This document shows positions 1 to 38,775 of a DNA stretch of 64,000 nucleotides, one piece after another. Below the pieces are notes generated by a model. That model was not told the origin of the DNA. It saw only the letters and a list, made by a program, of their open reading frames with translations, and searched no databases. The translations under genes and the position numbers were made by a program. The DNA lies in NCBI GenBank assembly GCA_964437445.1, contig CAYTGR010000014.1, positions 3,812 through 67,811 of the forward strand. Direction: 5' to 3'. Position 1 is the first letter of the stretch. Each line of letters begins with the position of its first letter. The stretch is from an uncultured Anaerolineales bacterium. Lineage in GTDB: Bacteria > Chloroflexota > Anaerolineae > B4-G1 > SLSP01.

Positions 1-35
1 CCTATACAGAGCGCATCAGCCTCAATCCGGCCGTC

Positions 36-233
36 ATGGCCGGCAAACCGGTCATTCGCGGCACACGCATCCCGGTGGAGCTGATCGTGCGGATGTTAGC
101 ACAGGGACTCTCGGAGCACGAGATCCTGGCCGAATATCCGCGCCTGGAACCGGCCGACCTGCACGCTGCATTGGCCTATGCCGCCGCTGTCCTGGCCGGC
201 GAGGACGTGTGGCTGCTACCTGTTCCGGCCTGA
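36..233 (+). CDS. DUF433-family small protein (antitoxin-like partner of a DUF5615 protein)
   Basis: 65-aa ORF whose stop lies 4 nt before the next ORF start; residues GKPVIRGTRIPVELIV resemble DUF433 as recalled from memory. The small, tightly coupled two-gene arrangement is typical of type II TA pairs. Confidence 0.55.
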   Translation: MAGKPVIRGTRIPVELIVRMLAQGLSEHEILAEYPRLEPADLHAALAYAAAVLAGEDVWLLPVPA

Positions 234-236
234 GCC

Positions 237-599
237 ATGCGCTTCCTCGTAGACGAATCCACCGGACAGGCCGTCACGGCCTACCTGCGCCGTGCCGGCC
301 ATGATGTGATGGCTGTGGCAGAGTCTCTCCCCCAGGCTGACGACATCACCGTCCTGCAACTGGCCGCCCGTGAATCCCGCATCCTGATCACGAACGATAA
401 AGACTTTGGCGACTTAGTCTACCGCAGTGGATTGTCACATCACGGGATCATCCTACTCCGGCTAAACGATGAAAGTCCGTCCCACCGGGTCGCCATGCTC
501 CAAACTGTGATAGAACACCATGCGGCCCAGCTCCCGGATACCTTCGTGATCGTCACCGAGCGCCACATTCGTTTTCGCTCCGCGCTGCCGCATCCCTGA
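237..599 (+). CDS. DUF5615-family (PIN/Mut7-C-like) putative toxin
   Basis: 120-aa ORF translationally coupled to the DUF433 ORF. Acidic residues (DES…D…ND) are consistent with a PIN-like fold. Confidence 0.5.
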   Translation: MRFLVDESTGQAVTAYLRRAGHDVMAVAESLPQADDITVLQLAARESRILITNDKDFGDLVYRSGLSHHGIILLRLNDESPSHRVAMLQTVIEHHAAQLPDTFVIVTERHIRFRSALPHP

Positions 600-634
600 G
601 CCGGTAAAAACGTCCTCCTTGCTCCAACTGGCCG

Positions 635-2446
635 TTACAACCCCAACGCCGCCAGCGCCTCCGGTGTGGGGAGACCCGTCTCCGCGTCCCAGCCGAGCTC
701 AGCGTAGAAGCCCGCCAGCATGACCGGCAGGTCGGGCACGCGGCCCTCGGTCCCGCCCTCCAACGGGCGGAGCAGCAGCGCCGGCAGCCGGTCGTTGGCC
801 CGCGTCAGCCCGCGCCGCAGGTTGAGCCCCCGCTTGAAGGTGACCAGCTGCTTGCCCAACGTGAGCAGGTCATCCAGCGCCAGCCCCCAGCCGGTCGCAG
901 CGTTGATCACGTCCAGCAGCACCGGGGCGGGCGGATTCTGGAACTCGCAGAGCGTCAGCGCGTTGTAGAGGTTGCGCCAGGCCTGCGAGCGGGCCGCGAC
1001 GTGCCCCTTTTCCTCGGAGGCCTCAAACCGGTCGCCCGGCACAATCCCCAGTTCCGGCGCGAGCGATTGCCCCGTATCCACGCCGAACATGTCGCCCTCT
1101 AAGTGGCAGGCGCCGCGCGGCGAGGTGGCGTAGATCGGCGCCATGCCAAAGAAGGCGCGCGGATCGTGCATCGGGACCTCCAACCGGTTCACCGTCACCG
1201 CCAGTTCGGGGACGCCGTAGTGCTCGGCTAAGGCCGCGTTGCCCTCGGCCAGCAGCGCGCCGAAGCCCTCGCGGTGCGCCAGCAGGGTGATCAACCGGTG
1301 CAACGTCTCGGCATCGCCGTAGCGCGGTTCCAGCCCGCCGGTCTCCGCCGGGGTGAGCAGGCCGCGGGCAAAGAGTTCGCAGGCCAGGGCCAGCGTCCCG
1401 CCGGTGCTGATCGTATCCAGCCCGTAGAGGTTGCAGAGATGGCCGGCGTAGATCACCGCCTCCAGGTCGTCCACCAGCACAAGCGAGCCGAGCGCGCCTA
1501 AGGTCTCGTACTCCGGGCCGTCCACCTTCTCCGCGCCGTAGCGCGGCGCGCGCGTCTCCCGCCCGCAGGCGATGGGGCAGCGGTAACAGGCAGTGGTCCG
1601 GGTCTGGTATTGCGTCGCCATCACCACGCCGGAGAGGTTGCTCCCGGCCTCCCATTCACCTTGCTGATAGTAGCGGATCGGCATATCGCCGTACATCAGC
1701 CCCATGTCCACGTAACCGGCGGTCCCGGCCAGCCGGAGCGCCTGGGCCGCCATGTCGTCTTTCACGCCGGCGGTGATCGTGCGGGTCAGCGCCTGATAGG
1801 CCGCCGGGTCGGCCAGCGGCACTTTCGCCGTGCCGCGCAGCCCGATGGCTTTGAGCTGCCTGGCCCCCATCACCGCGCCCAGGCCGGTGCGCGCCGCCGC
1901 CCGCCCGTGGTCGTTCATGATGGCCGCCAGTTTGACCCGTCGCTCGCCCGCCACGCCGATGCAGGCCACGCGCGCCTTCGGCTCACCCAGCAAGCTGCGC
2001 ACGCGCTCCTGGGTGGCGTAGGTATCCAGCCCCCAGAGCTCCGCCGCGTCGTGTAGCTCCGCCCGGCCCTCCACAATGGAGAGCCAGACCGGCTGTGGAG
2101 CCTGCCCGGTGATGATGATGCCGTCGTAGCCGGCAAAGCGGAGTTCCGGCCCGAGGAAGCCGCCGGTGTTCGCCTCGCCCCACAACCCCGTCAGCGGCGA
2201 GAGCGCGCCGACACTGCACCGTCCCGCCGAGGGCATAGAGGTGCCCACTAACGGCCCGGTCATGAAGATGAGGGGATTCTCCGGCCCTAAGGGATCGGTC
2301 GCCGGCCCGGCCAGGTCCGCCAGATAGCGGGCCGCTAATCCACTCCCGCCGACAAAGGCGCGGGCGTAAGCCTCGTTGAGCGGCTCGTCCCAGAGCCGAC
2401 CGGTGGTCAGGTCCACCCGCAAGAGTTTACCCAGGTAACCGTGCAT
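635..2446 (-). CDS. aor: Tungsten-containing aldehyde:ferredoxin oxidoreductase (AOR family)
   Basis: The N-terminus MHGYLGKLLRVDLTTGRLWDEPL…GGSGLAARYL is typical of AOR-family enzymes. There is a conserved Cys-rich region (CYRCPIACGRE) and the length is ~600 aa. The start is trimmed to the MHGY Met at 2446 because a GGAGG RBS lies 5 nt upstream on the minus strand. Confidence 0.85.
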   Translation of the reverse strand: MHGYLGKLLRVDLTTGRLWDEPLNEAYARAFVGGSGLAARYLADLAGPATDPLGPENPLIFMTGPLVGTSMPSAGRCSVGALSPLTGLWGEANTGGFLGPELRFAGYDGIIITGQAPQPVWLSIVEGRAELHDAAELWGLDTYATQERVRSLLGEPKARVACIGVAGERRVKLAAIMNDHGRAAARTGLGAVMGARQLKAIGLRGTAKVPLADPAAYQALTRTITAGVKDDMAAQALRLAGTAGYVDMGLMYGDMPIRYYQQGEWEAGSNLSGVVMATQYQTRTTACYRCPIACGRETRAPRYGAEKVDGPEYETLGALGSLVLVDDLEAVIYAGHLCNLYGLDTISTGGTLALACELFARGLLTPAETGGLEPRYGDAETLHRLITLLAHREGFGALLAEGNAALAEHYGVPELAVTVNRLEVPMHDPRAFFGMAPIYATSPRGACHLEGDMFGVDTGQSLAPELGIVPGDRFEASEEKGHVAARSQAWRNLYNALTLCEFQNPPAPVLLDVINAATGWGLALDDLLTLGKQLVTFKRGLNLRRGLTRANDRLPALLLRPLEGGTEGRVPDLPVMLAGFYAELGWDAETGLPTPEALAALGL

Positions 2447-2463
2447 GGTGCCTCCTTCAAAAA

Positions 2464-2496
2464 GCAGTGAGCAGTGAATAGTGAGCCGTGAGCCAG
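2464..2496. repeat. GTGAGCAGTGAATAGTGAGC-family repeat, copy 1
   Basis: Shares an exact 20-mer with 50553-50572. A partial inverted copy (GGTGCTCACCCGTGAG) lies nearby at ~2519-2535. Confidence 0.7.
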
Positions 2497-2595
2497 AAGC
2501 CTCCCTCAAAGAGCAGTGGTGCTCACCCGTGAGGGATTGGCTCGTAGTGCCGCGTTTCAGCGCGGCTAAGACAGGGCTTAAGTGCCTGATTGCAA

Positions 2596-2660
2596 ATGAC
2601 CACGGCCACAGGCCACCATTTTTGCGGTGGTCTGTGGTCCGTCGTTCGTGGTCTGCGGTC
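2596..2660. repeat. REP-like imperfect palindromic element, copy 1 (GACCACGGCCACAGGCCACC…GGTGGTCTGTGGTCCGTCGTTCGTGGTCTGCGGTC)
   Basis: Inverted repeat read from the sequence; same family as the elements at 4381-4443 and 10636-10676. Confidence 0.7.
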
Positions 2661-3834
2661 AGAAATCTACGTCCCGCCCGTCGTAGGCATAGAGGAAGAG
2701 CTGGCGCAGTTCCTCATACGAGGGCATCCGGGCCGCGGCGAGGATAGAGCCATCGTTGAAAGCGTTATCTACCAGCGACTCCAATGCCGCCTCGTAGGCC
2801 ACGCGGTCAATCCCCAGGTCGGCCACGCAGGTCGGGTTGCCGACCTCGCGGATAAAGCTTTGGAGGCGATCAGCCAGAAGACAGGCGGCGTCCTCGTCGT
2901 CCTGGTAGCGCAGGTGCAAGGCGTCGGCCAGGAGCGTGAACCGCTCCGGCGCTTCCTGGGCGATGAACTCCACGGTGTAGGGCAGGAACAAGCCCACCGC
3001 GCGCCCATGGGGGACGTGAAAAAGCGCGCCGAGCGCGTGCCCCATCGCATGAGCCAGCGCCGCCAGCGAGTTGCCAAAGCCCAGCCCGGCCAGGGTGGCG
3101 GCGTTGTGCATCCGCTCACGCGCCTCCAGATCGGCACCATCGCCCCGGGCGGTGGCGACGGCGCGCGGCAGGTAACGCAGAACCAGCTCAATCGCCTGGA
3201 GGCAAAGGCCATCGGTCATGTCGTTGTGCCAGGCACAAGTGAAGCCCTCCACGGCGTGCGTCAGCGCATCCAGCCCCGTGTCGGCGGTCAACTGGGGCGG
3301 CATGCCCGCCACCAGCGCCGGGTCCACAATCGCCAGGTCAGCAACGTTGGCGCGGTTGCCCAGGGGCAATTTGCGCTGCTGTTCGGGGTCGGTGAGCACA
3401 ATGGCCCAGGTGACCTCCGAGCCGGTGCCGCTGGTCGTCGGAATCGTGATCAGCCGGGCCTTGTCGCGCAAGCGGAGCGGGACCACCGGGTTGATGGCAG
3501 CCGGCTCCAGTTCCGGGTGCTCATAGAGGACCCAGATGGCTTTGGCAGCGTCCATTACCGAGCCGCCGCCCACCGCTACAATCCAATCCGGGCCGAATGC
3601 CAATGCCGCCTCCGCGCCCCGGCGCACCGTTGACACGCTGGGCTCCGGCTCCACCGCATCAAAGACAGAGATTTCCAGGCCGGCCACGGCCAGGTGCGCC
3701 TTGACCTGCTCCACAATCCCCAGCTTGACCAGCAGCGCATCGGTGACGATGAACGCGCGCCGGCCTTCCAGCTCATCCAGCGCGTTCAGCGCTCCCTCAC
3801 CGAAGACAATCTGCGGCGAGACAAAATACCACAT
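2659..3834 (-). CDS. Iron-containing (group III) alcohol dehydrogenase
   Basis: 391 aa with Fe-ADH motifs (GGGSVMDAAK; metal-binding His-rich HAMGHALG…H). An AAGGAGGG RBS lies upstream of the ATG. Confidence 0.85.
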   Translation of the reverse strand: MWYFVSPQIVFGEGALNALDELEGRRAFIVTDALLVKLGIVEQVKAHLAVAGLEISVFDAVEPEPSVSTVRRGAEAALAFGPDWIVAVGGGSVMDAAKAIWVLYEHPELEPAAINPVVPLRLRDKARLITIPTTSGTGSEVTWAIVLTDPEQQRKLPLGNRANVADLAIVDPALVAGMPPQLTADTGLDALTHAVEGFTCAWHNDMTDGLCLQAIELVLRYLPRAVATARGDGADLEARERMHNAATLAGLGFGNSLAALAHAMGHALGALFHVPHGRAVGLFLPYTVEFIAQEAPERFTLLADALHLRYQDDEDAACLLADRLQSFIREVGNPTCVADLGIDRVAYEAALESLVDNAFNDGSILAAARMPSYEELRQLFLYAYDGRDVDF

Positions 3835-3855
3835 CGCGCCCTCCTTTCATTGAGT

Positions 3856-3876
3856 AAGGATGAAGGATGAGGGATG
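3856..3876. repeat. Heptamer tandem repeat (AAGGATG x2, AGGGATG) upstream of the Fe-ADH RBS
   Basis: Read from the sequence. Confidence 0.6.
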
Positions 3877-3922
3877 AAGTCAAGAAGAGAAGTAGACAGG
3901 TGTAGATTTTTGGTTGATTCGT

Positions 3923-4333
3923 TTAGCCAGCGAACTCGGTGGGGACTTTAGCCGTGCAGGAGACGATCTCCTTGGCCGCTTTGGGGTAGCGCATCACCTT
4001 CATCATATCGCCCTGGAGCTTGAGCTGGCGCGTCATCATCCCCTGGATGGGGTCCAGCTTGCCCTCAATGACACGGCGCCAGGTGCTGTAGGGCGCGGTG
4101 AGGACAAAAGCGGCCCGCTTTTCGTCGGAGCTGCTCACCCGCATCGCGCTGGGGCTTTTCCCGTGCAGGAGATCCAGGTAAAGATAGGTAGTTTCAGGGC
4201 AGGCGGCATCGGCCTGCACGACAAAGAGAAAATCACCCTCCCAGTCTTTGGCCGAGCGCTCGTAGCTTTCGCTGGCATTGAGCATCCGGCTCAGCTCTTT
4301 GATCCATTCATCCGAAGGAAATCTGAACGCCAT
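3923..4333 (-). CDS. SCP2 sterol/lipid-binding domain protein
   Basis: ~136 aa; the ORF is trimmed to the Met of MAFRFPSDEWIKEL. The C-terminal MTRQLKLQGDMMKVM is typical of SCP-2 domains. Confidence 0.55.
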   Translation of the reverse strand: MAFRFPSDEWIKELSRMLNASESYERSAKDWEGDFLFVVQADAACPETTYLYLDLLHGKSPSAMRVSSSDEKRAAFVLTAPYSTWRRVIEGKLDPIQGMMTRQLKLQGDMMKVMRYPKAAKEIVSCTAKVPTEFAG

Positions 4334-4380
4334 GGGTTGCCTCCTTAAATTGAAAATAGTTGTGGATGTGTTTTTTTTGA

Positions 4381-4443
4381 CCACGGACCACAGACCACTT
4401 CACTATACTATCGGTGGTCCGTGGTCCGTCGTCTGCGGTCTGG
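4381..4443. repeat. REP-like palindromic element, copy 2 (perfect 13-bp arms GACCACGGACCAC / GTGGTCCGTGGTC)
   Basis: Read from the sequence; lies between the SCP2 gene and the alpha-oxoamine synthase gene. Confidence 0.75.
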
Positions 4444-4458
4444 ATTCCAGTAGCTGGC

Positions 4459-5637
4459 TTAGATGATCCCCAGATGCTTGCCCACCTGGGCAAAAATCGC
4501 CAGGACCCGTTCCAGCTGCTCATCCGTGTGGGTCGCCATGTAACTGGTCCGCAACAACGTCAGGTCAGGCGGGACGGCGGGTGGGAGTACCGGGTTGCAG
4601 TAGACGCCGGCCTCAAAGAGCGCCTTCCAGGTCAGCAGCGTCTTCTGGTCATCGCGGATGATGATGGGGATAATCGGCGTCTGGCTGACCCCGATGTCAA
4701 AGCCCAGCTCGCGATAGCGGCGGCGCATGAAGTCACCGATCTGGATGAGCCGCTGCACCCGCTCCGGCTCCTGCTCCATGATGTCCAGCGCCGCGAGCGC
4801 CGCCGCCGCGTTGGCCGGCGGGATGCTTGCGCTGAAGATGAGCGACCGCGCGTGGTGTTGAATGTAGTCCACCACCTCGGCGTCACCGGCGATAAAGCCC
4901 CCTAACGAGGCAAACGATTTGCTGAAGGTCCCCATGATCAGGTCCACCTGGTCGGTCAGGCCAAAGTGGGCCGCCGTGCCGCGCCCGCCGCCGAGCACCC
5001 CGATGGAGTGCGCGTCGTCCACCATCAGCCGCGCGCCGTAACGCCGGCAGAGATCCACCAGCTCCGGCAACGGCGCGATGTCGCCGCCCATGCTGAAGAC
5101 CCCATCCACCACCACCAGCTTGCCGGCCTCCTCCGGCAGCGCGCAGAGCAGCCGTTGCAACGCCTCCATGTCGTTGTGCGGGAAGCGCTTCATCTCGCCA
5201 TACGACATCTTGCAGCCATCCACAATGCTGGCGTGATCGTCTTTGTCGGTGATGACGTAGTCGCCGCGCTGGACGATGGCCGAGATCGTCCCCACGTTGA
5301 CCTGGTAGCCGGTGCTGAAGACTAACGCGGCCTCTTTGCCGACCCAGCGGGCCAGACGGCGCTCCAGTTCCAGGTGCAGCTCCAGCGTCCCGTTGAGGAA
5401 GCGGGAGCCGGTGCAACTGGTGCCGTAGATGCGCACCGCGTCCATGGCGGCCTGGCGCACCTGCGGATGGACGGTCAGCCCCAGGTAGTTGTTGGAGCCG
5501 ATCATGAGGAGATGCCGGTCACCGATGGAGACCTCTGTCCCTTCGTTATTAGTCAGGGGGATGAAATAAGGATAAACGCCAGCCGCCCGCGCCTCACGGG
5601 CGGTCGTAAACTCACCACATTTCTGGAAAATGTCCAT
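4459..5637 (-). CDS. Alpha-oxoamine synthase family PLP enzyme (AONS/KBL/serine palmitoyltransferase-like)
   Basis: 392 aa. Class-II aminotransferase motifs are present: SNNYLGL, DDAHSIG, and the TFSKS PLP-lysine region. Confidence 0.8.
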   Translation of the reverse strand: MDIFQKCGEFTTAREARAAGVYPYFIPLTNNEGTEVSIGDRHLLMIGSNNYLGLTVHPQVRQAAMDAVRIYGTSCTGSRFLNGTLELHLELERRLARWVGKEAALVFSTGYQVNVGTISAIVQRGDYVITDKDDHASIVDGCKMSYGEMKRFPHNDMEALQRLLCALPEEAGKLVVVDGVFSMGGDIAPLPELVDLCRRYGARLMVDDAHSIGVLGGGRGTAAHFGLTDQVDLIMGTFSKSFASLGGFIAGDAEVVDYIQHHARSLIFSASIPPANAAAALAALDIMEQEPERVQRLIQIGDFMRRRYRELGFDIGVSQTPIIPIIIRDDQKTLLTWKALFEAGVYCNPVLPPAVPPDLTLLRTSYMATHTDEQLERVLAIFAQVGKHLGII

Positions 5638-5770
5638 CGCAAAATTCCTTTCTGCTTACAGGTTAAATACAATAAGGCCATCACCCCAATCAGCGGAGCA
5701 AATATGCGCCCATTTTAAGTAAGAAACGGCAGGAGTCAAATGGCCGCCCGCTTTCTAACAATATCCCCCA

Positions 5771-6202
5771 TTGACATCCTTGGATCTTTCAAGTACTATG
5801 AATCATATGGCGCACGAACGAATGAGGCTGGGACAGCGCGGGGAGCTGTTAGCGGCGGAGACACTGGCCCGCCATGGCTTTATGGTGATCGCCCGTAACT
5901 GGCGCTGCCCGGCCGGGGAAGCGGATCTGGTCGCCGAGCGCGGCGGGGAGTGGTACTTTTTTGAGGTGCGGACCCGGCGGGGAGCCGCTCACGGGTTGCC
6001 GGAAGAGTCGCTGACCCCCGTCAAGCGAGCTCGCATGGAGGCTGTCGCCCGGCATTACCTGAGCGATCAGAGCAACGCCGCCGAGCTCTCCTGGCACCTC
6101 GGCTTCGTCGCCGTCGCTTTAGACGCCACTGGCCGGCTGTTGCGCATCACCCTGTACCCTGATCTGGCCGGTGAGCCGCTGCTGGACAGCCGACAACCCT
6201 AA
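5771..6202 (+). CDS. yraN: YraN/UPF0102 family endonuclease-like protein
   Basis: Residues GELLAAETLARHGFMVIARNWRC..GEADLVAERGGEWYFFEVRTRR match UPF0102. A TTGACA-N17-TACTAT promoter lies at 5741-5769. The true start may be an internal Met (5798 or 5807). Confidence 0.7.
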   Translation: MTSLDLSSTMNHMAHERMRLGQRGELLAAETLARHGFMVIARNWRCPAGEADLVAERGGEWYFFEVRTRRGAAHGLPEESLTPVKRARMEAVARHYLSDQSNAAELSWHLGFVAVALDATGRLLRITLYPDLAGEPLLDSRQP

Positions 6203-6210
6203 AAGTTGGG

Positions 6211-6238
6211 GATTCTTGATCCCTGATTCTTGATTCTT
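6211..6238. repeat. Heptamer tandem repeat (GATTCTT x3 plus GATCCCT)
   Basis: Read from the sequence; lies between yraN and the M20 peptidase gene. Confidence 0.7.
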
Positions 6239-6257
6239 ACAAGGAGCCGATGAAAAG

Positions 6258-7406
6258 ATGGACTACACGCCCTTGCTGGACTATTTACAGGCCCGCCAGA
6301 CCGCCATGGTAGAAGCAGTGGAATTCCTCGTCAATCTGGAATCACCGAGCACAGACAAGCTGCTGCTGGATCGCCTGGCGCTCCACCTGCAAGCGCGCTT
6401 CGTCGCGCTGGGGGCAGCTGCCACAGTGATCTCTAATCCGACCCACGGCAACCACGTGCAGGTCATTCTGGTGCCCGATGACGCAGCGCCGACGGCACGT
6501 CCGGCACTGCTCCTGGCCCACTTTGACACCGTCTGGGCGGAGGGAACGCTGGCCACCCGCCCCTTCCACGTGGCCGATGGCCGGGCCTGGGGTCCCGGTG
6601 CGTATGACACCAAGGGCGGGATCATCGTAGCCGAGTACGCCTTCCGGGCGCTGACCGCACTGGGTTGGGTGCTGCCCCGTCCCGTCATCCTGCTGCTCAA
6701 CTCCGATGAAGAAATCGGCAGCCACAGTTCGCGCGCCCTGATTGAGGGGCTGGCCCGCCAGGCCGAGTACGTCCTGGTGCTGGAATCCGCCGAGCCGGGA
6801 GATGTGCTCAAAACCGCACGGAAAGGGGTCGGGAGATTCAAATTGGAGGTCACCGGCCGGGCTGCTCACGCCGGGATTGAGCCGGAAAAGGGCGTCAGCG
6901 CAACCGTGGAGCTGGCCCACCAGATCCTGCAGCTGCACAGCCTCAACGATTTCACCCGCGGCACCACCCTCAACGTGGGGATTATCCATGGCGGCACCCG
7001 CGTCAACATCGTGACCGACCACGCCGAAGCCCAGATAGATGTACGGGCCTGGACCCCAGCGGAAGCAGAACGGATCACCGCCGCGCTCCAGCAATTAAGC
7101 CCGGTGCTGCCTGGCGCCCAGCTCAAGCTCAACGGCCGGTTCAACCGGCCACCCATGGAGTGCACCGAGCAGAGCGCCCGGCTCTTCCAGCGCGCTCAGG
7201 AGATCGGCCGTGACCTCGGTCTGAACCTCCAGGCGGGGGCGAGCGGCGGCGGCAGCGACGGCAACTTCACCGCCGCGTTGGGCGTGCCCACCTTAGACGG
7301 CCTGGGGGCCGTGGGCGAGGGTGCCCATGCCGAAAATGAGCAGATCTACGTGGACGCCCTGCCGACCCGGGCGGCCCTGTTAGCGGCGCTCATGCTGAAT
7401 CTGTAA
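6258..7406 (+). CDS. M20-family metallopeptidase (carboxypeptidase G2-like)
   Basis: 382 aa. Metal-binding motifs are HFDTV, GAYDTKGG and NSDEEIGS. Confidence 0.75.
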   Translation: MDYTPLLDYLQARQTAMVEAVEFLVNLESPSTDKLLLDRLALHLQARFVALGAAATVISNPTHGNHVQVILVPDDAAPTARPALLLAHFDTVWAEGTLATRPFHVADGRAWGPGAYDTKGGIIVAEYAFRALTALGWVLPRPVILLLNSDEEIGSHSSRALIEGLARQAEYVLVLESAEPGDVLKTARKGVGRFKLEVTGRAAHAGIEPEKGVSATVELAHQILQLHSLNDFTRGTTLNVGIIHGGTRVNIVTDHAEAQIDVRAWTPAEAERITAALQQLSPVLPGAQLKLNGRFNRPPMECTEQSARLFQRAQEIGRDLGLNLQAGASGGGSDGNFTAALGVPTLDGLGAVGEGAHAENEQIYVDALPTRAALLAALMLNL

Positions 7407-8347
7407 TGGGAGTGGCTGCGATCCCCCTGGTCGCCCTCGTCGGACCGACGGCAGTAGGCAAGACGGCGCTGGCCGTCACCGCAGGTGAGTCCCTCGGCGC
7501 GGAGATCGTCTCCGCCGACTCACGCCAGGTCTACCGCCGGATGGAGATCGGCACCGCCAAACCGACGCCGGAGGAGCGGGCCCGCGTCCCGCACCATTTG
7601 CTGGACGTGGTGGAGCCGGATGAGCCGTTCGGCCTAAGCGACTTTCTGCGGCTGGCCCAGGCCGCCATCACCGACATCGCCGCGCGCGGGCGACTGCCGT
7701 TCCTGGTCGGTGGCACGGGGCAGTACGTCCAGGCCCTCCTGAAGGGCTGGCAGGTCCCGGCCGTGCCGCCCGATCCTGCGCTGCGTGCCGCCCTGGAGGC
7801 CACCGGCCGCACCGACCCCGACGCGCTGTGGGCGCAGCTCCTGGCTTTAGACCCCGGCGCGGCAGAGTTCATTGACCGGCGCAACCTGCGCCGCGTAATC
7901 CGCGCGCTGGAAGTCTGCCTCAAGACCGGGGAACCCTTCTCTACCCAGCGGCGTGCCGGCCCACCCCCCTACCGCGCGTTGATCCTGGGGCTGACGTTGC
8001 CGCGCGCGGCGCTCTACGCCCGCGCCGACGCCCGCGTGGAGGCCATGCTGGCCGCGGGGTTGGCTGACGAAGTCCAGGCGCTGCTGGCCGCCGGCTACAG
8101 CTGGGAGCTCCCCTCCATGTCCAGCCTGGGGTATGCCCAATTCAAACCCTATTTTAGGGAACAGGCTTCATTGGACGACGTGGCGGCACGCATCAAGACC
8201 GACACGCACGATTTCATCCGCCGCCAGTACGCCTGGTTCCGCCCGGGCGACCCGACCATCCACTGGCTGGATGCGGCGGCCGTGACCGGGGCGGACGTGG
8301 TCGCGCTGGTCCAGGCCTGGCAGGCCGAGGCAAAACGTGAAACGTAA
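7406..8347 (+). CDS. miaA: tRNA dimethylallyltransferase
   Basis: A P-loop (GPTAVGKT) is followed by ADSRQVYRRMEIGTAKP, which is diagnostic for MiaA. Confidence 0.9.
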   Translation: MGVAAIPLVALVGPTAVGKTALAVTAGESLGAEIVSADSRQVYRRMEIGTAKPTPEERARVPHHLLDVVEPDEPFGLSDFLRLAQAAITDIAARGRLPFLVGGTGQYVQALLKGWQVPAVPPDPALRAALEATGRTDPDALWAQLLALDPGAAEFIDRRNLRRVIRALEVCLKTGEPFSTQRRAGPPPYRALILGLTLPRAALYARADARVEAMLAAGLADEVQALLAAGYSWELPSMSSLGYAQFKPYFREQASLDDVAARIKTDTHDFIRRQYAWFRPGDPTIHWLDAAAVTGADVVALVQAWQAEAKRET

Positions 8348-8367
8348 AACGTGAAACGTGAAACGTG
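8333..8367. repeat. Heptamer tandem repeat (AAACGTG/AAACGTA) x5, overlapping the miaA stop
   Basis: Read from the sequence. Confidence 0.8.
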
Positions 8368-8434
8368 TTGCGTATTCCGTCTTTTACACACTACGGAACA
8401 CACAACACACCTGGCGTCTCTCCCCAGCGGCTTT

Positions 8435-8461
8435 TTAGCACTCTCCCCCTTTGAGTGCTTG
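8435..8461. promoter_or_regulatory. CIRCE operator copy 1 (TTAGCACTC-N9-GAGTGCTTG)
   Basis: Inverted repeat seen in the sequence; matches the HrcA-binding CIRCE consensus with one mismatch in the right arm. It overlaps the -35 box of the groES promoter. Confidence 0.8.
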
Positions 8462-8487
8462 ACAAATCCCATGTACTATGGTATCAT
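8459..8487 (+). promoter_or_regulatory. sigma70-type promoter of groESL (TTGACA-N17-TATCAT)
   Basis: Hexamers read directly from the sequence and sit between the two CIRCE elements. Confidence 0.6.
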
Positions 8488-8497
8488 TAGGGCATGT

Positions 8498-8524
8498 TTA
8501 GCACTCAAGGCTTGAGAGTGCTAA
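8498..8524. promoter_or_regulatory. CIRCE operator copy 2 (perfect TTAGCACTC-N9-GAGTGCTAA)
   Basis: Perfect consensus CIRCE, 35 nt upstream of the groES ATG. Confidence 0.9.
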
Positions 8525-8558
8525 AAATTTCAACCCTAAGGACAACGGAGGTAAAGAA

Positions 8559-8864
8559 ATGTCCGTGAAAATTCGTCCGCTCGGCGATCGTGTCATTGTT
8601 GAACCCCTCCAGGAAGGGGAAACGACGTTTGCGGGAGGCATGTTGGTGCTCCCCGACACCGCCAAGGAAAAGCCCCAACAGGGCACCGTGATTGCCGTCG
8701 GCCCCGGCGCGCGCGATGAAGATGGCAAGCGCATCCCGATGGAAGTCAAGGCTGGTGACATCATCGTCTACGCCAAGTACGCCGGGACTACCTTCAAAAC
8801 CCGCGACGGCAAAGAACTGCTGATCCTGCGCGAAAGCGACATCCTCGGCGTGGTGGAAAGCTAA
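8559..8864 (+). CDS. groES: Co-chaperonin GroES
   Basis: 101 aa, [16 protein letters not shown]…. Confidence 0.95.
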
Positions 8865-8915
8865 CCACCGCAAACTAATCCCAGAGACTAAACAAGGCAA
8901 CTAAGGAGAGAAACA

Positions 8916-10559
8916 ATGGCAAAGCAACTGGTTTTCGGTAGCGATGCACGCGCTGCTTTGAAGCGTGGTATGGACATTTTGGCCCAGGCCGTCGTCACGA
9001 CCCTCGGCCCCAAGGGGCGCAACGTGGCGCTGGATAAGAAATGGGGCGCCCCCACCATCACCCACGACGGTGTGACCGTCGCCAAAGAGATTGAACTGCA
9101 AGACCCCTTTGAGAACATGGGCGCGCAGCTGCTCAAGGAAGCCGCCACCAAGACGAACGACATCGCCGGTGACGGAACCACCACCGCGACCCTGCTGGCG
9201 CACGTCCTGATTGAAGAGGGTATGAAGAACGTCGCCGCCGGCGCCAACCCGATGCTGCTGAAGAAAGGCATCCTGGCAGCCGCCGAGGCCGTCGCCGCGG
9301 CCCTCAAGGAAGCGGCCGTGGAAGTGACCACCCGTGAAGACATCGCCAACGTCGCCGCCATCTCCGCCCAGGACCGCGAAATCGGTGAGCTCATCGCCGA
9401 GGTCATGGAGAAAGTCGGCAAGGACGGCGTCGTGACCGTGGAAGAGTCCAAGGGTCTGGCCTTTGAGACCGAATACGTTGAGGGTATGCAATTTGATCGC
9501 GGCTACATCAGCGCCTACTTCATGACCAACTCCGACACGATGGAAGCCGTCATTGAGGAACCCTACATCCTCATCTACGACAAGAAGATCTCCGCCGCGC
9601 AAGACCTGGTGCCCATCCTGGAAAAGATGATGCAGCGCGGTTCCCGCAACCTGGTCATCATTGCCGAGGATGTGGACGGTGAAGCGCTGGCGACCCTCGT
9701 CGTCAACAAGCTGCGCGGCCTGCTGAACTGCGTCGCCATCAAGGCCCCCGGCTTCGGGGATCGCCGCAAGGCCATGCTGCAAGACATCGCCATCCTGACC
9801 GGTGGTCACGTCATCACCGAAGAGGAAGGCCGCAAACTGGAAAGCGCCACCTTAGAAGACCTGGGCCGCGCCGACAAGGTCATCGCCAGCAAGGACGAGA
9901 CCACCATCGTCAACGGCCACGGTGACGAGGCCATGATCAAGGCCCGCATTGACCAGATCAAGAAGGAAATTGAGGTCTCCACCTCCGATTACGACAAGGA
10001 GAAGCTGCAGGAGCGCATGGCCAAGCTGGTCGGCGGTGTGGCTATCATCCGCGTCGGTGCGGCGACCGAGACCGAGCTCAAGGAAAAGAAGCATCGCGTG
10101 GAAGACGCCCTGAGCGCCACCCGCGCGGCCGTGGAAGAGGGCATCGTCCCCGGCGGTGGGGTCGCGCTGATCAACGCTATCGCCGCCCTGGACTCCGTCC
10201 ACATGGACTACCCCGATGAGCAGACCGGTGTCACCATCCTGCGCAAGGCGCTGGAGATGCCGATCCGCCGCATCGCCGAGAACGCCGGCATGGACGGCGC
10301 GGTCATCCTCGCCGAGACCCGCCGCAAGCAGGCCGAGCAGGGCGACACCCACATTGGTTACGACGTGATCACCGGCGAGTACGTGGATATGCTGAAAGCC
10401 GGCATCATTGATCCGGCCAAGGTGACCCGGGGCGCGCTGCTCAACGCCGCTTCCGTCGCCGCGATGGTGCTGAGCACCGAGGCGCTCATCACCGACATCC
10501 CGGAGAAGGAAAAGCCGATGCCCGGTGGCCCCGGTGGCGGCGGCGGGATGGACTTCTAA
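8916..10559 (+). CDS. groEL: Chaperonin GroEL
   Basis: 547 aa with [15 protein letters not shown]…, the AGDGTTTAT motif and a C-terminal GGM-type tail. Confidence 0.97.
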
Positions 10560-10635
10560 GTCCTGACCTCCCCTGATCAGTCTACAGACCAGCCCTTGCT
10601 CGTGCGAGCAAGGGCTGGTTAGTTTGACCCCTGAC

Positions 10636-10676
10636 ACAGACCACTCTTTTTAACTGCCGGTGGTCCGTGGTTTCCT
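10636..10676. repeat. REP-like element, copy 3 (CACAGACCAC…GGTGGTCCGTGG)
   Basis: Read from the sequence; lies between the convergent groEL and feoC genes. Confidence 0.6.
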
Positions 10677-10710
10677 GTGAACGCCGTCTTAACCGCGCTG
10701 ACGCGCGTCC

Positions 10711-10977
10711 CTACAAACCTTTTTCGGCGGCCAGCGCCCGCTGACCGCGCTCCGTCAAAGTCCAGACCCGTGCCGTAGAGAAGAGTTGGCAGCCGGCCGC
10801 CACCGCGCAGCTGGCGCAACTCTCGGCGCAAGGCGTCACCGGGCGCAAATAGCCCTGCTGCTCCAGCTGGATCAACATCTGCTGCACCAGCGCCTCGGGC
10901 AGAGCCAGGGTTTGCGCCAGCGCCGGCACCGTTTGCAGCCCTCCGGCGCCCACCAGTCTCAACAGCTGCTGTAACAT
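10711..10977 (-). CDS. feoC: FeoC-like winged-helix protein
   Basis: ~89 aa after trimming to the Met of MLQQLLRLVG…; it starts 3 nt after the feoB stop. The Cys cluster (CAESCASCAVAAGC) plus a wHTH is typical of FeoC. Confidence 0.5.
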   Translation of the reverse strand: MLQQLLRLVGAGGLQTVPALAQTLALPEALVQQMLIQLEQQGYLRPVTPCAESCASCAVAAGCQLFSTARVWTLTERGQRALAAEKGL

Positions 10978-10979
10978 CG

Positions 10980-13280
10980 CTATCCCCCTCCCCACAGCAA
11001 GCCCACCTGGTAAACCCCCATCCCGACCCCCAGCGAGAGCGCCAGGAAAAAGAGCAGGCTCCCCAACGTCCACCCCCAGGAGCGCGTCTCCTGCCGGATC
11101 GTCGCCACGGTGCCAATGCAGGGAATAAAGAGCAACTGCACCACCAGGAAAGCCAGGGCCGCCAGGGGGGTTAACACCGTCGGCAACACGGTCTCCACAT
11201 CCCCATAGAGCACGCCTAACGTGGCAATGGTGTTCTCCTTCGCCACAAAACTGGTCAGCAACGCCACCAGCACCGGCCAGGGCAATCCCAGCCAGCGTCC
11301 TACCGGCTCCAAAGCGTGCCCTACCTGCGCCAGATAGCTCTCCGTCACCTCACCGCTGGGGAAGAACGAGAGCGCCCAGATCAACAGCGAGGCCACTAAG
11401 ATCACCGTCCCGGCCTTCTGCAAAAAAGCCACCACGTTCTTCCAGATGTAAAGCCCGATGGTTCTGAGGTTAGGCAGATGGTAAAGCGGCAATTCCATCA
11501 CAAACGCCACCACCTCGCCCTTGAAGAAAAACCGGTTGAGCAGGAACCCCAACCCCGAAAGCAGGCCCAGGTTGAGCGCCACCAATCCCCAGGTGACCCA
11601 GCCGGCTGCCCGGCCAAAGAAGAGCGGCGCCAGCACCGCCACCACCGCCATCCGCGCCGCACAAGGGATGAAAGGGGCCAGCAAAATCGTCAGCAGCCGC
11701 GCCCGCCGGGATTCAATGATCCGCGCCCCCAAGACCGCCGGCACATTGCAGCCGAACCCCAACAACAGCGGCAGGAAGCTTTTGCCGTGCAACCCCATCA
11801 GATGCATCCAGCGGTCGGTCAGGTAGGCCGCGCGGGCCAGGTAGCCGGTATCCTCCAGAAAAGCCAGCGCCGCAAAGAAAATCACCAAGATCGGCAGGAA
11901 GGTCAACACCAGCCCCACGCCCCCCAACAGCCCGTCGGCCACCAGGTCCACCAGCCAGACCGGTGCGCCGGCCAGCTGCCCACGCAGCGAGGCCGCCAGC
12001 GCCTCCACCAGCCCGCCCAGCCAGCTCTGAAGCGGCCCACCCACGGTATAGGTCAGCCAGAAGACCACCCCCAGCACCCCGATCAGCGCCGCCAGCCCCC
12101 AGAACGGATGGGTCAGCACGTGATCCAGGCGCGCGGTCAGCCCCACTCGCCCCACCCGGGGCCGGACAACCGCCGCGCGCACCATGCGGGCGATCCACTC
12201 ATAACGGGCGCCGGCAATGTCTAAAATGGCATCTTCATGCTGATAGAGCAGGGCGTGGACTTTCTCCCAGCGTTCCGGCGGGAGAGCGGCTTGCAGCAGC
12301 CCGGTCAGTTCCTCATCCCCCTCCAGCAGCTTGAGGGCTACCCAATCGGCCGGATAGGGTTCGGGCACGTCGTCGGCAATCAGCGTCAACAGCTCGGCCA
12401 GCACCAGCTGATGGGCCGGCAGGATGGTAGGGCGGCGCGGTTCGTAGGTGACTTCGCCCCGCAACAAGCGCCCCAACATCTCCACCAGCTCCTGCACGCC
12501 CTGATTGCGCGTGGCCGCCATCGGCACCACCGGAATGCCCAGCGCCGCCGACAGCACATGCGGTTCCACCTGGATCCCCTCCTGCTCAGCCACATCCATC
12601 ATATTGAGCGCCAGCACCACCGGCGCCGGTAACAACAACAATTCGGCCACCAGGTAGAGATTGCGTTCCAACGTCGCGGCATCCACCACTGCCACCACAA
12701 TGTCAGGCCGCTCACGCAGGATAAAATCCCGGGCGATGCGTTCCTCTTCGGAATTAGCCGTGAGGCTATAGGTGCCGGGCAGATCTACCAATCGGAAGGC
12801 CGTCCCGCCAACGGCAAACTGGCCCTCCTTCCGTTCCACGGTTTTCCCGGGCCAATTGCCCACATGCTGATTGAGACCGGTCAGCAGATTGAACACCGTA
12901 GACTTGCCCACATTCGGCTGCCCGGCCAGGGCCACCGTCACGGAACGCACGACCGGCTCAGTGGCACAGGTCTCCGTTTCGACCAAAGTCACCTGGATAT
13001 GCGCCGCTTCGCCCCGGCCGAGGGCCACCTGGGTTCCCCGCAGGGAGACGATCAGCGGACCGTGGCTATCATTGCGCGTCACGCAAACCAGCGCTCCCGG
13101 GGTAAAACCGAGGGCAGCCAGACGCGAAATAAAAAAACGATGGCCGTCCAGGTGACGCACCAGGCCACTCTGCCCCGGCTCTAAACTGAGTAACGAAACT
13201 ATCCCACCGCCAGGAGCCGGCGCAGTTCTCAAAGCCCTCCTGGAAGAAAAGATATGATCGTGAATATGACGATCTCTCAC
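10980..13280 (-). CDS. feoB: Ferrous iron transporter, FeoA–FeoB fusion
   Basis: The N-terminal SH3-like FeoA segment is followed by a G-protein domain (GQPNVGKSTVFN, DLPG) and the polytopic FeoB membrane domain. The start codon is uncertain: a GTG at 13280, or a downstream TTG. Confidence 0.85.
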   Translation of the reverse strand: MRDRHIHDHIFSSRRALRTAPAPGGGIVSLLSLEPGQSGLVRHLDGHRFFISRLAALGFTPGALVCVTRNDSHGPLIVSLRGTQVALGRGEAAHIQVTLVETETCATEPVVRSVTVALAGQPNVGKSTVFNLLTGLNQHVGNWPGKTVERKEGQFAVGGTAFRLVDLPGTYSLTANSEEERIARDFILRERPDIVVAVVDAATLERNLYLVAELLLLPAPVVLALNMMDVAEQEGIQVEPHVLSAALGIPVVPMAATRNQGVQELVEMLGRLLRGEVTYEPRRPTILPAHQLVLAELLTLIADDVPEPYPADWVALKLLEGDEELTGLLQAALPPERWEKVHALLYQHEDAILDIAGARYEWIARMVRAAVVRPRVGRVGLTARLDHVLTHPFWGLAALIGVLGVVFWLTYTVGGPLQSWLGGLVEALAASLRGQLAGAPVWLVDLVADGLLGGVGLVLTFLPILVIFFAALAFLEDTGYLARAAYLTDRWMHLMGLHGKSFLPLLLGFGCNVPAVLGARIIESRRARLLTILLAPFIPCAARMAVVAVLAPLFFGRAAGWVTWGLVALNLGLLSGLGFLLNRFFFKGEVVAFVMELPLYHLPNLRTIGLYIWKNVVAFLQKAGTVILVASLLIWALSFFPSGEVTESYLAQVGHALEPVGRWLGLPWPVLVALLTSFVAKENTIATLGVLYGDVETVLPTVLTPLAALAFLVVQLLFIPCIGTVATIRQETRSWGWTLGSLLFFLALSLGVGMGVYQVGLLWGGG

Positions 13281-13296
13281 TTTTCCTTAACCCTCC

Positions 13297-13944
13297 TCAT
13301 ATAAATTCAGAAGTAACCCAAACTACCTGGGCCAGCGCTCCCTCCAACGTCAACGGAACGCCTTCCCGCGCCACCGTCAACGTCCCCTCGGCGCGTCCGA
13401 TCAGCTGCAAATTGACGCCGGGAGTGATCCCTATGGCCTGCAACCGCCGTAACAGGTCCGGCAATTCGGGGCTGATGCAGGAGACCAGCAGGGGGGTGCC
13501 CAGCGGCGACTCGCTCAACCGCACGCCGCGCGTCGTCGCCGTCTGCGGCGGGATCGGGGCCCCGTGCGGACAGCGGTCCGGCTCCCCCAGCAGCTGCGCC
13601 AGCCGTTCCGTGACCAGCTGAGGAGCCGCGTGCTCCAACGCGCCGGCGATTTCGTGCGCCTCGTCCCACGGCACGCCCAGCAAGTCGGTCAAAAAGCGCT
13701 CCCACAGGCGATGGCGGCGCACCAGCGCTTCGGCCATTGCCCGCCCGGCCTCCGTCAACATCACGCCGCGGTAGGGCTGATAAATCACCAACGCGCGCTC
13801 GGCCAGCTTCCGCACCATCTCGTGGATAGAAATGGGGGAAAAGCCAAAGTACTCCTGCAACCGCGCCAGCGGGACCGGCACATCCGCCCCTTCCCACAGC
13901 CGGTAGATAGCACCCAAATAATCTTCAACACTTTCGTGGCTCAC
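13297..13944 (-). CDS. DtxR/MntR-family metal-dependent repressor with C-terminal FeoA-like domain
   Basis: N-terminal DtxR HTH (VEDYLGAIYRL…ARLQEYFGFSPISIHEMVRKLAERAL) and a metal-binding/dimerisation region. The C-terminal SH3-like FeoA fold appears as ITPGVNLQLIGRAEG. It lies directly upstream of feoAB. Confidence 0.8.
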   Translation of the reverse strand: MSHESVEDYLGAIYRLWEGADVPVPLARLQEYFGFSPISIHEMVRKLAERALVIYQPYRGVMLTEAGRAMAEALVRRHRLWERFLTDLLGVPWDEAHEIAGALEHAAPQLVTERLAQLLGEPDRCPHGAPIPPQTATTRGVRLSESPLGTPLLVSCISPELPDLLRRLQAIGITPGVNLQLIGRAEGTLTVAREGVPLTLEGALAQVVWVTSEFI

Positions 13945-14099
13945 CAGACTGCTCCGGACCGCTCTTAATGATAAGGTATACCTTATAATTGATTATAATT
14001 GGGTTAAAGAATATGTCAATAGCCCGGCCCGGACCTGCCGGAACTATCGTCGCCGTTGTAACGTCTAAGTTGAATATCCACTCACCAGGAGGCACGCCT

Positions 14100-14546
14100 G
14101 TGAACGCAAGAATTACCGGTATCGTATGGGTCATCCTTTTGTTGGCCGGATTGCTGAGCGCCTGCACCATGACGCCAACGCCCTCTCAATCGCCGGTCTC
14201 CCCGCCCCCCACCACCGGCAACGTGCTGCGCGGTCTGGCAGCGGTAGAGCGCGTGGATCTGATGCAGCTGGAAAGCTTCCCGGTCCAGGTTCACGCCCGA
14301 ATCCAGGGCGAGCTGAGCGATAGCTGCACGCAGCTGGGCCCCATTACCCAAACGCGCGAAGGGGGCACTATCACCGTGGTGGTGCCCACCGTGCGCCCGG
14401 CCGACGCCGTCTGCACCACCATCGTCGGCGAGTTTGACCAAACGGTCCCCCTGGAGGTCAACGGCCTGCCGGCCGGCGAATACACCGTGGACGTCAATGG
14501 CGTGCGCGCCACCTTCACGTTGACACGGGATAACCGACTGCCCTGA
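14100..14546 (+). CDS. Hypothetical secreted lipoprotein
   Basis: ORF trimmed to the GTG preceding the signal peptide ITGIVWVILLLAGLLSAC (lipobox LSAC), followed by a Pro/Thr-rich linker. No recognisable domain. Confidence 0.35.
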   Translation: MNARITGIVWVILLLAGLLSACTMTPTPSQSPVSPPPTTGNVLRGLAAVERVDLMQLESFPVQVHARIQGELSDSCTQLGPITQTREGGTITVVVPTVRPADAVCTTIVGEFDQTVPLEVNGLPAGEYTVDVNGVRATFTLTRDNRLP

Positions 14547-14576
14547 ACCGCTGTCAAAGGAAAAAGTTAAAAAACC

Positions 14577-14605
14577 TTGACGCAAATTATCTCCTGTGTT
14601 ATAAT
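14577..14605 (+). promoter_or_regulatory. sigma70-type promoter (TTGACG-N17-TATAAT, extended -10 TGTTATAAT)
   Basis: Read directly; 35 nt upstream of the yceD-like start. Confidence 0.55.
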
Positions 14606-14640
14606 GATCAATGTTAGTAGCCCGTTGGAGGGGCTTACTC

Positions 14641-15150
14641 ATGATCCGAATTGATCTGAGTGGACTGGTCAACGCCAAAGCCGGGCATCGCGAAGGGATA
14701 GCACTGGATTTAGGCGATTTGATCCTGGATGACCTGCATCTGGGGTATCTGAAGGGCGAAATTCGGTTCACTCGCCTGGCTAATGGCATCCTGGTAGAAG
14801 GTGTGCTGGATGCCGAAGCCGAGACAGAATGCACGCGCTGTTTGACCTCTTTTTTTGAACCGGTTACAATTGAGTTAGAGGATGTCATCAGTCTTCCCGG
14901 TGCGGATCTGACCCCTGAACGTCCGGTCCGAGTCACCGAAGACGGTTGGGCCGATCTCTCCCCCTTGATCCGCGAATATGCCTGGCTGGAGCTGCCCATG
15001 AACCCGCTCTGCTCCCCGGATTGCCAGGGGCTTTGCGTCCGCTGTGGCGGCAATTTGAATCGCGGAGAATGCACTTGCGACACGGCTGCCCCGATAGACC
15101 CGCGCTGGGAGACATTACGCCCTCTGCTGGGGCAAACCGACCGTCCCTAA
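14641..15150 (+). CDS. YceD/DUF177 family protein
   Basis: ORF trimmed to the MIRIDLSGL Met. A C-terminal Cys cluster ([23 protein letters not shown]) is typical of DUF177. Confidence 0.65.
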
Positions 15151-15188
15151 ACCCAAGCCGGCCTGTTGCCATTGAAGGAGGCCGAAGT

Positions 15189-16349: not shown

Positions 16350-16450
16350 ACCAGGGTTGGATTGACACCATGCTGATGTCGGGCGCGCCGGGGCGCTGGG
16401 GGAGTGAGGCCCCCTGAGCGCCCGGCCCGTCGTGAACGGGAACGGACCCA

Positions 16451-16477
16451 CCCGCCAGCCTCACTGGCGGGTTTTTA
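16451..16477 (+). terminator. Rho-independent terminator after rpoD
   Basis: CCCGCCAG-loop-CTGGCGGG followed by TTTTT. Confidence 0.6.
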
Positions 16478-38745: not shown

Positions 38746-38775
38746 CCGCCCCCCAACAACCAGCGTCCACCGCCC

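Follow-up and report, generated by a model that had tools for sequence, protein, structure and literature searches.

What kind of element is an imperfect palindrome that recurs at three intergenic sites of one bacterial genome, how did it arise, and does it act on the genes that it follows? The palindrome in question lies in a 64,000-nt stretch of DNA from an uncultured Anaerolineales bacterium (GenBank assembly GCA_964437445.1, contig CAYTGR010000014.1, positions 3,812 to 67,811 of the forward strand), referred to here as the window. A preliminary description had regarded it as a REP-like element, i.e. a repetitive extragenic palindrome that might terminate transcription, stabilise mRNA or be the target of a RAYT (REP-associated tyrosine) transposase, and had described it as built from half-sites only. 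That description missed both the make-up of the arms, which are tandem arrays of a heptanucleotide, and the wider period-7 system to which they belong. Our analysis gives good support for a lineage-specific family of extragenic stem-loops, made of inverted heptanucleotide arrays, in uncultured Chloroflexota (Anaerolineae/Thermoflexia-like). It is likewise well supported that these hairpins, built on the unit GACCACR, are one form of a lineage-wide heptanucleotide repeat system in intergenic spacers.

The same palindrome is indeed present at all three sites on the minus strand, with coordinates slightly refined to 2598-2660, 4379-4440 and 10633-10671, and no further copies of it were found elsewhere in the 64 kb window. 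The reported placement at gene 3' ends or between convergent genes also holds, each site being found 0-40 nt beyond a stop codon and site 3 standing between converging genes. Site 1 is a GACCACR/YGTGGTC heptamer hairpin whose left arm (2598-2617, GACCACGGCCACAGGCCACC) and right arm (2626-2660, GGTGGTCTGTGGTCCGTCGTTCGTGGTCTGCGGTC) enclose a loop of 8 nt; its last unit overlaps the Fe-ADH stop codon (2659-2661), and the AFOR start (2446) follows about 150 nt downstream. Site 2 is the best-preserved hairpin, with three heptamers per arm plus a degenerate outer unit, and it begins 18 nt past the aminotransferase stop codon and ends 45 nt ahead of the SCP2 start. Its arms (left 4379-4398, GACCACGGACCACAGACCAC; right 4413-4440, GGTGGTCCGTGGTCCGTCGTCTGCGGTC; loop 14-15 nt) are 90% complementary over 20 nt, and the T8 run at 4371-4378 is read as A8 on the transcribed strand, directly after the hairpin. 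In register the site 2 stem has a single A.C mismatch, which becomes a G.U pair on the minus strand; the 'perfect 13-bp arms' described earlier at this site do exist, but they are out of register, matching the outer left arm (4379-4391) to the inner right arm (4414-4426). Site 3 is a short and decayed copy of about 1.7 units per arm (left 10633-10644, GACACAGACCAC; loop 14 nt; right 10659-10671, GGTGGTCCGTGGT), its left arm being one base shorter than the GACCACAGACCAC of a sister strain. It lies 73 nt past the groEL stop codon, beyond groEL's own terminator hairpin (about 10588-10620), and, from the other side, 39 nt past the stop codon of an 88-120 aa helix-turn-helix (HTH) open reading frame (ORF) that is the last of the feoAB operon.

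The 12-mer put forward in the preliminary description does not rise above chance when two mismatches are allowed (10 matches versus 11.4 expected). An extended signature, CACAGRCCAC-N6-20-GGTGGTCYGTGGT, a 23-base pattern built from the sites post hoc, matched these three sites alone and gave no match in 100 shuffles. As direct repeats of each other the sites align over 42 nt at 79% and over 37 nt at 78%. When folded, sites 1 and 2 reached -32 to -41 kcal/mol, far better than shuffled sequences (z -4.4 to -7.3), with the minus strand of site 2 at -40.6 kcal/mol (z -7.3); site 3 folded alone did no better than its shuffles (z -0.2 to -0.6).

The internal structure of the arms became apparent from Tandem Repeats Finder, which resolved those of sites 1 and 2 into 2.9-3.9 copies of period 7 with the units GACCACR and GTGGTCY; site 3 holds fewer than two units per arm. 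They are not the only such arrays. At a threshold of at least 3 units and at least 85% match the window contains 12 period-7 arrays versus 0.45 expected from composition-preserving shuffles, 10-12 of the 12 being intergenic; arrays of periods 5-6 and 8-12 are lacking or occur at or near the chance level. At least seven different units are spread across the spacers (AGCAGTG, AAGGATG, GATTCTT, AAACGTG, ACGTTTT, TTCGCCA and others). Per 100 kb the window has 18.8 period-7 arrays, and relatives with an Fe-ADH about 70% identical reach 57.8, compared with 1.2 and 0 in control loci from Actinomycetota and Proteobacteria, respectively. Array counts are the informative measure of this excess, rather than lag-7 autocorrelation, which over all intergenic DNA gives a weak signal (0.276 versus about 0.26).

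Many of the direct arrays close on a gene boundary. Those that end a few bases before a ribosome-binding site precede AFOR (AGCAGTG, sense CTCACNG; 2463-2493, minus strand, 9 nt before the site), Fe-ADH (AAGGATG as written on the plus strand; 3856-3879, minus strand), an M20 peptidase (GATTCTT; 6211-6238, plus strand) and an ABC transporter (L001 16247, discussed below with the dispersed copies; L numbers denote the loci retrieved for comparison). Others begin on stop codons: the AAACGTG array (8333-8367, plus strand) contains that of miaA, and the TTCGCCA array (50804-50841, minus strand) starts at that of a 1502-aa sensor kinase (50840-50842). The ACGTTTT array (18456-18484, plus strand), of the complement family of 8333-8367, ends at a TATAAT box, and an AACAACC-type array (38585-38606, no strand assigned) lies in the 38489-38775 spacer. 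Upstream of a response-regulator gene lies a direct GTGAGCA-family array (50552-50588, minus strand), 20 bases of which, the variant unit GTGAATA among them, are identical in the 2463-2493 array; a small GTGAGC/GCTCAC hairpin of the same family follows at 50654-50709 (no strand assigned), within a conserved non-coding block of 130 nt.

How such arrays change can be read from three strains with 95-99% identical DNA: the window itself, L149, and contig Ga0067045_1029547 of metagenome Ga0067045 (L132 and L139), which is 95-97% identical to window positions 1-16476. The AGCAGTG array has about four extra units in L132, the AAGGATG array is longer by one unit and the GATTCTT array shorter by two in the two sister strains, and the AAACGTG array differs in all three strains (4, 5 and 7 units). 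These whole-heptamer differences show slippage of the direct arrays directly. Since the miaA stop codon falls inside a variable array, the repeat supplies the last five codons of the gene as well as its stop codon, which is TAA or TGA depending on the strain. Unit number changed in 4/4 direct arrays, in whole heptamers, versus 0/6 hairpin arms (Fisher p ~0.005). Site 1 is identical in L149 and differs in L132 by one substitution, in a bulge. At site 2 the loop was rewritten between strains (the TATAGT that it contains in the window is absent from the sister strain), whereas the stem carries single substitutions only, two of which keep pairing on the sense strand (A.C to G-C, and C-G to U.G). 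Overall, stems are better conserved between the strains than loops and the flanking spacer. Beside site 2 the T-run at 4371-4378 measures 8, 7 and 6 bases in the three strains, and L149 has an 8-nt duplication next to the SCP2 ribosome-binding site, so that slippage in this spacer takes other step sizes too.

Over larger distances it is the architecture that persists. The gene order SCP2, Fe-ADH, AFOR is conserved in the relatives with about 70% identical Fe-ADH, and in four of them (L146, L148, L150 and L151) the spacer between Fe-ADH and AFOR is occupied by a heptamer hairpin of RACGTGA/TCACGYN units that sets in -3 to +3 nt from the stop codon, just as site 1 in the window starts on the Fe-ADH stop codon. 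These hairpins stop just short of the AFOR ribosome-binding site, with 28-48 nt left to the start codon, and range from 3 units per arm (L148) up to about 22 and 18 (L150); the 318 nt from stop to start codon of L150 fold at -206 kcal/mol, and the loop of the L146 hairpin holds a 380-nt insert. Elsewhere in these relatives, spacers are built from TGCGTAC/GTACGCA or GCTATCA/TGATAGC units, and Ardenticatenaceae and Anaerolineae metagenome-assembled genomes (MAGs) among the genome-scan matches listed show the same architecture with further units, such that it recurs with at least five unrelated heptamers in relatives. No sequence-specific transposase can account for a pattern in which architecture and position outlast the sequence itself; local slippage combined with template switching can, with or without selection on structure.

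The genome-contig scan that supplied these matches used a palindromic pattern, and most of the matches listed were unrelated GC-rich palindromes in Actinomycetota. True heptamer hairpins among them came from Anaerolineae, Ardenticatenaceae, Verrucomicrobiota, Gemmatimonas and Acidobacteria MAGs. Long inverted GACCACN arrays were seen, again among the matches listed, in Gemmatimonas, Opitutales, Verrucomicrobiota, Pyrinomonadaceae and Acidobacteria MAGs (the loci behind the heptamer matches in distant phyla are L033, L050, L061, L068, L075, L089 and L090), a distribution that recalls the TAACTGA repeats of MacGregor (PMC4679880). Chryseolinea MAGs in the same list carry a related palindrome of 7-nt period (GTCCACAGACCACAGTCGAC...).

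Other repeats inhabit the spacers of these relatives. In three unrelated contexts (L144 2019-2580, L152 1128-1625 and L158 1123-1650) we observed a gene for a 125-aa GxxExxY / PD-(D/E)XK_3 (PF13366) protein flanked by the same inverted repeats of 25-36 nt, each of three 9-nt units (RACGCAAAG ... CTTTGCGY). In L144 it takes the place that the heptamer hairpin has in sister lineages, from the stop codon of Fe-ADH to the ribosome-binding site of AFOR; its flanks were considered as heptamers and rejected, having a period of 9 and belonging to a separate element. The gene has more than 7900 homologs at E <= 1e-20, the best 120 of which are 72-98% identical and many of which are on short contigs, and together with its flanks it resembles a small mobile cassette whose terminal inverted repeats are conserved. 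A GC-rich palindromic repeat (CCCCGCC..GGCGGGGAAGGGGGTCGGGGGGATGGGG), absent from the window, occurs in several spacers of the relatives with about 70% identical Fe-ADH (L146 5385-5425 and 7528-7580, L144 1-60, L151 1-30 and 120-150, L150 2320-2365), once within the loop of a heptamer hairpin. Finally, L148 carries upstream of SCP2 a tandem repeat (2948-3440) in which a unit of about 100 nt (GAGCCGGGTTGTGAAACCCGGCCTACG...CGTGCACCGTAGGGYGGCTTTC) occurs five times.

The GACCACR hairpin itself is also dispersed. A scan of JGI metagenomes for it returned 25 stretches, and at least nine further hairpins were located on seven other contigs of Ga0067045; together with a solo array outside the window, 5 kb to the left (L001 16247-16268), these bear out the expectation of copies beyond the three sites in the 64 kb. 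The genes ahead of the nine extra copies encode a sodium:solute symporter, saccharopine dehydrogenase, guaA, DegV/radical-SAM, methylmalonyl-CoA mutase, heliorhodopsin, PIN/GlyRS and Lit; these neighbours were confirmed by Pfam and are functionally unrelated, which led us to reject the idea of an operator or regulon. Twelve aligned copies yield the consensus (GACCGC/GACGAC/GACCAC)n - C - loop - (GTGGTC/GCGGTC)n, in which the 5' arm unit GACCACR has the variants GACGACR and GACCGCR and the 3' arm is the complementary YGTGGTC. The copies have 1.5 to at least 4 units per arm, frayed ends and differing loops. A stop codon adjoins 11 of the 12. Two loop subfamilies can be recognised: site 1 and L138 have 27 nt of loop plus inner stem in common, and site 3 and L123 8465-8513 have in common the loop cNgcagttaaaaa and the 3' flank AGGGGTCA. 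Such subfamilies indicate real paralogy and hence duplicative spread. As to arm order, the C-rich arm preceded the G-rich arm 60 to 0, but 57 of the 60 overlap matches to the patterns used for scanning, leaving an unbiased count of 3 to 0.

At the RNA level, 8 of 12 same-direction cases have a more stable fold on the sense than on the antisense strand (Wilcoxon W+ = 15, one-sided about 0.03), with the largest gaps in L150 (-17.5 kcal/mol) and L144 (-22.7 kcal/mol), the latter having 13 G.U pairs in the sense fold versus 2 in the antisense fold. This bias is a hint of selection on the transcript. The best reading overall, which we consider moderately probable, is that these are slippage-built heptamer stem-loops acting in the 3' or intercistronic region of mRNA. 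Replication slippage would lengthen and shorten the arrays 7 nt at a time; the arms of an array that stands opposite its complement would stay matched through template switching within the strand, and whole hairpins would now and then be copied into new intergenic sites. At the end of the upstream gene's transcript the element would fold into a very stable stem-loop, which may hold back 3' exonucleases or serve to insulate or couple neighbouring cistrons. It would thus act in a manner akin to the REP hairpins of E. coli, though without RAYT and without termination by a canonical hairpin plus U-tract. Of the functions first proposed for the palindrome, that of an mRNA stabiliser is still plausible.

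Several observations weigh against this interpretation. The advantage of the sense fold is only marginal, and at site 1 it is the antisense strand that folds better. Variant heptamers are often unmatched in register between the arms, so that pairing is not strictly kept. In same-direction spacers 6 of 7 copies lie closer to the preceding stop than to the next start codon, and in 6 of 7 the loop is A-rich on the sense strand, yet neither trend is significant alone; in a wider survey with a crude gene caller the distribution of spacer types did not differ from background. The hairpin arms, at 3 units or fewer and impure, are also compared with direct arrays of 3.4-5 units, and their shortness and impurity could explain part of the slippage contrast. 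Lastly, the RNA role is one that we infer.

Many of the same points would be expected if the elements were a neutral by-product, that is, the outcome of heptamer slippage and palindrome-correcting template switching in unconstrained spacers, functionless and tolerated. The arrays extend through spacers as far as functional boundaries and in some genes (miaA, the sensor kinase, Fe-ADH) even provide the stop codon; unit number is very fluid, a single orthologous site having anything from 3 to about 22 units per arm; variant units are unmatched between arms; site 3 is decaying; the flanking genes are unrelated in function; and the positional statistics are weak. We nevertheless view this explanation as possible but doubtful, for a heptamer hairpin has been kept at the Fe-ADH stop across lineages with about 70% identical Fe-ADH despite replacement of its sequence, the hairpin arms are stable while all neighbouring direct arrays vary, stems are more conserved than loops and flanking spacer, and there is the sense-strand G.U bias, marginal as it is. 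Classical REP/REPIN elements (REPINs being REP doublets forming hairpins), which a RAYT (Y1 transposase) encoded elsewhere in the genome would recognise, cut and spread, are improbable here. Part of the REP-like view stands, in that lineage-specific extragenic palindromes are repeated at gene 3' ends (3 in 64 kb, the solo array 5 kb to the left and at least nine loci in Ga0067045), the palindrome is confined to extragenic DNA at the three sites and the nine further copies, these imperfect palindromes recur in many near-identical copies, and the loop subfamilies indicate duplicative spread. The GTGG in each 3' arm unit presumably resembles the GT[A/G]G head of REPs. However, no trait specific to REP or RAYT was found: among the 12 copies there is no fixed unit with a GT[A/G]G head next to the palindrome, GTGG occurring only within every repeat unit, the aligned copies have no conserved flanking tetranucleotide outside the arrays, and neither the number of 7-nt units nor the ends are fixed. 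As to the RAYT target, no transposase domain of any kind, the Y1 family (PF01797) included, was detected in the 42 window ORFs scanned or in 15 genes flanking nine other copies; the same architecture is built with at least five unrelated heptamers in relatives, and direct arrays of the same system clearly evolve by slippage.

The elements do not qualify as canonical intrinsic terminators either. With Rho-independent terminators and stabiliser stem-loops they have in common a GC-rich stem-loop right after the stop codon; in contrast to the 3-8 nt loop plus U-tract of such terminators, the GACCACR loops measure 8-15 nt and are followed by no T-tail, the sense-strand tails being AUUUGCAA at site 1, A8 at site 2 and CAGGGGUCA at site 3. 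groEL has an ordinary hairpin followed by a T-rich stretch (TTAGTTT) at about 10588-10626, and our scan made no terminator or promoter call inside the elements. A miniature inverted-repeat transposable element (MITE) was rejected because the aligned copies lack direct duplications at their ends and the 'internal sequence' is a variable loop of 8-16 nt. It is very improbable that the elements are protein-binding sites at the DNA level (operator, nucleoid-protein or gyrase sites) with the GACCAC hexamer as recognition unit. Inverted, repeated hexamer cores do resemble operator half-sites, and SARPs (Streptomyces antibiotic regulatory proteins) are reported to bind heptameric direct repeats (PMC5930380). 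However, the copies lie after stop codons rather than in promoters, behind functionally unrelated genes, their unit number varies, and no promoter-like site overlaps them. A 7-bp spacing would also place successive units on different faces of the helix.

Heptanucleotide repeats were reportedly described in cyanobacteria by Mazel and colleagues in 1990. They are known from cyanobacteria (the short tandemly repeated repetitive, or STRR, sequences), Xanthomonas and Beggiatoaceae (PMC4679880, PMC4692102, bioRxiv 10.1101/2022.06.06.494920), and were later found over-represented among the long repeats of many bacterial genomes, the 'long SSRs' (simple sequence repeats) of Mrazek et al. 2007, as summarised in PMC4679880 and PMC4692102. 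Regarding their role, PMC4692102 states that there is no detailed literature and PMC4679880 only proposes functions. A literature search found no description of heptamer repeats in Chloroflexota. STRRs and long SSRs have much in common with the system in the window: a 7-nt tandem unit, a strongly intergenic location 0-50 nt from start or stop codons, several unit families per genome, unit numbers that vary between strains, and polymerase slippage as the proposed mechanism. Those accounts treat direct arrays, whereas the GACCACR elements are inverted arrays that form long hairpins, stable in the unit number of their arms, and heptamer hairpins recur at orthologous stop codons; MacGregor 2015 (PMC4679880) reports a single inverted case among 170 repeat sets. 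The direct arrays at 2463, 3856, 6211 and L001 16247, ending just before a ribosome-binding site or start, resemble the TAACTGA repeats of Beggiatoaceae, cyanobacteria and Bacteroidetes (MacGregor 2015, PMC4679880) and the heptamers of Nostoc, which lie near promoters and start codons (bioRxiv 10.1101/2022.06.06.494920). TAACTGA and Nostoc repeats use other unit sequences and are predicted to be unstructured, in contrast to the GACCACR elements, which are strongly structured and lie after stop codons. With the REP, BIME (bacterial interspersed mosaic element) and REPIN sequences of enterobacteria and Pseudomonas (PMC3116915) the GACCACR family has in common short imperfect extragenic palindromes at gene 3' ends or between converging genes, a probable role as an mRNA 3' stem-loop and duplicative spread. 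Unlike REPs, it lacks a fixed head, its arms have an internal 7-nt period and vary in unit number, and its architecture is independent of sequence.

The genes around the hairpins were mapped by Pfam and by gene calls on the matching metagenome contig. On the minus strand lie AFOR (635-2446), Fe-ADH (2659-3834), SCP2 (3923-4333) and the aminotransferase (4459-5637), followed on the plus strand by groES and groEL (8559-10559) and again on the minus strand by the short HTH ORF (10711-10977/11073) and feoAB (10980-13280). Among named Fe-ADH homologs the closest belong to Anaerolineae, Thermoflexales, Thermoflexia and Chloroflexi MAGs, from which the source is taken to be an uncultured member of the Chloroflexota. 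No tRNA or tmRNA gene was found in the window, and Rfam 15 at gathering threshold gave no match over its whole length. Upstream of groES, two CIRCE-like (controlling inverted repeat of chaperone expression) inverted repeats (TTAGCACTC-N9-GAGTGCTWR) at 8436-8461 and 8498-8524 flank a near-consensus promoter (TTGACA-17-TATCAT), which we take to be the ordinary operator arrangement of HrcA-type heat-shock control.

Farther along the window, very large PAS/GAF sensor proteins are clustered at 39880-48366 (minus), 50840-55348 (minus) and 58160-61630 (plus); those of 2828 aa and 1502 aa are histidine kinases, and five receiver-domain genes are interspersed, including a receiver-PLP (pyridoxal phosphate) enzyme fusion (36407-38488) and a receiver-adenylate cyclase (38776-39852). 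The non-coding block of about 130 nt mentioned above (50622-50753) sits here in the spacer between sensor kinase and response regulator, and is 87% identical to L123 11684-11813, which lies in an unrelated spacer of another contig, upstream of a class-III aminotransferase and right after a GACCAC hairpin. The block has a T/A-rich end and no match in Rfam; it could be a mobile non-coding element or a small RNA. A period-8 array (GATTCNCC) at 56262-56308 (plus strand) ends at a TATAAT box, with only 8 nt between this box and the ATG at 56327, a start codon without a ribosome-binding site, which suggests a leaderless mRNA with a -35 region made of repeat units. Both this array (56262-56329) and the period-7 array at 18456-18492 run directly into TATAAT boxes.

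Returning to the stem-loops, the recurrent hairpin between Fe-ADH and AFOR allows a more far-reaching reading, which we put forward as speculative and rather unlikely, namely a selected class of intercistronic RNA 'zippers' in Chloroflexota, with a stem reaching from the stop codon to the ribosome-binding site of the next gene. It is no less speculative, and again rather unlikely, that in such a class slippage and template switching keep the arms matched, so that structure and position outlast changes of the heptamer and of the unit number (3 to about 22 per arm). Were this true, the stem would join stop and start and thereby couple or insulate translation, cargo in the loop would be tolerated, and the GACCACR family would be one 'zipper' lineage that also became dispersible. 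Heptamer elements also have practical consequences, as they break metagenome assemblies, can supply or shift stop codons (miaA), and in their hairpin form are liable to be misannotated as REPs or terminators. The lineage offers a tractable case in which freely slipping direct arrays stand beside inverted arrays that do not slip, and in which a hairpin was held at one stop codon while its sequence was replaced. Structural selection versus mutational drive, the stabilising or coupling of mRNA by such stems, and the reason for a 7-nt step thereby become testable questions.

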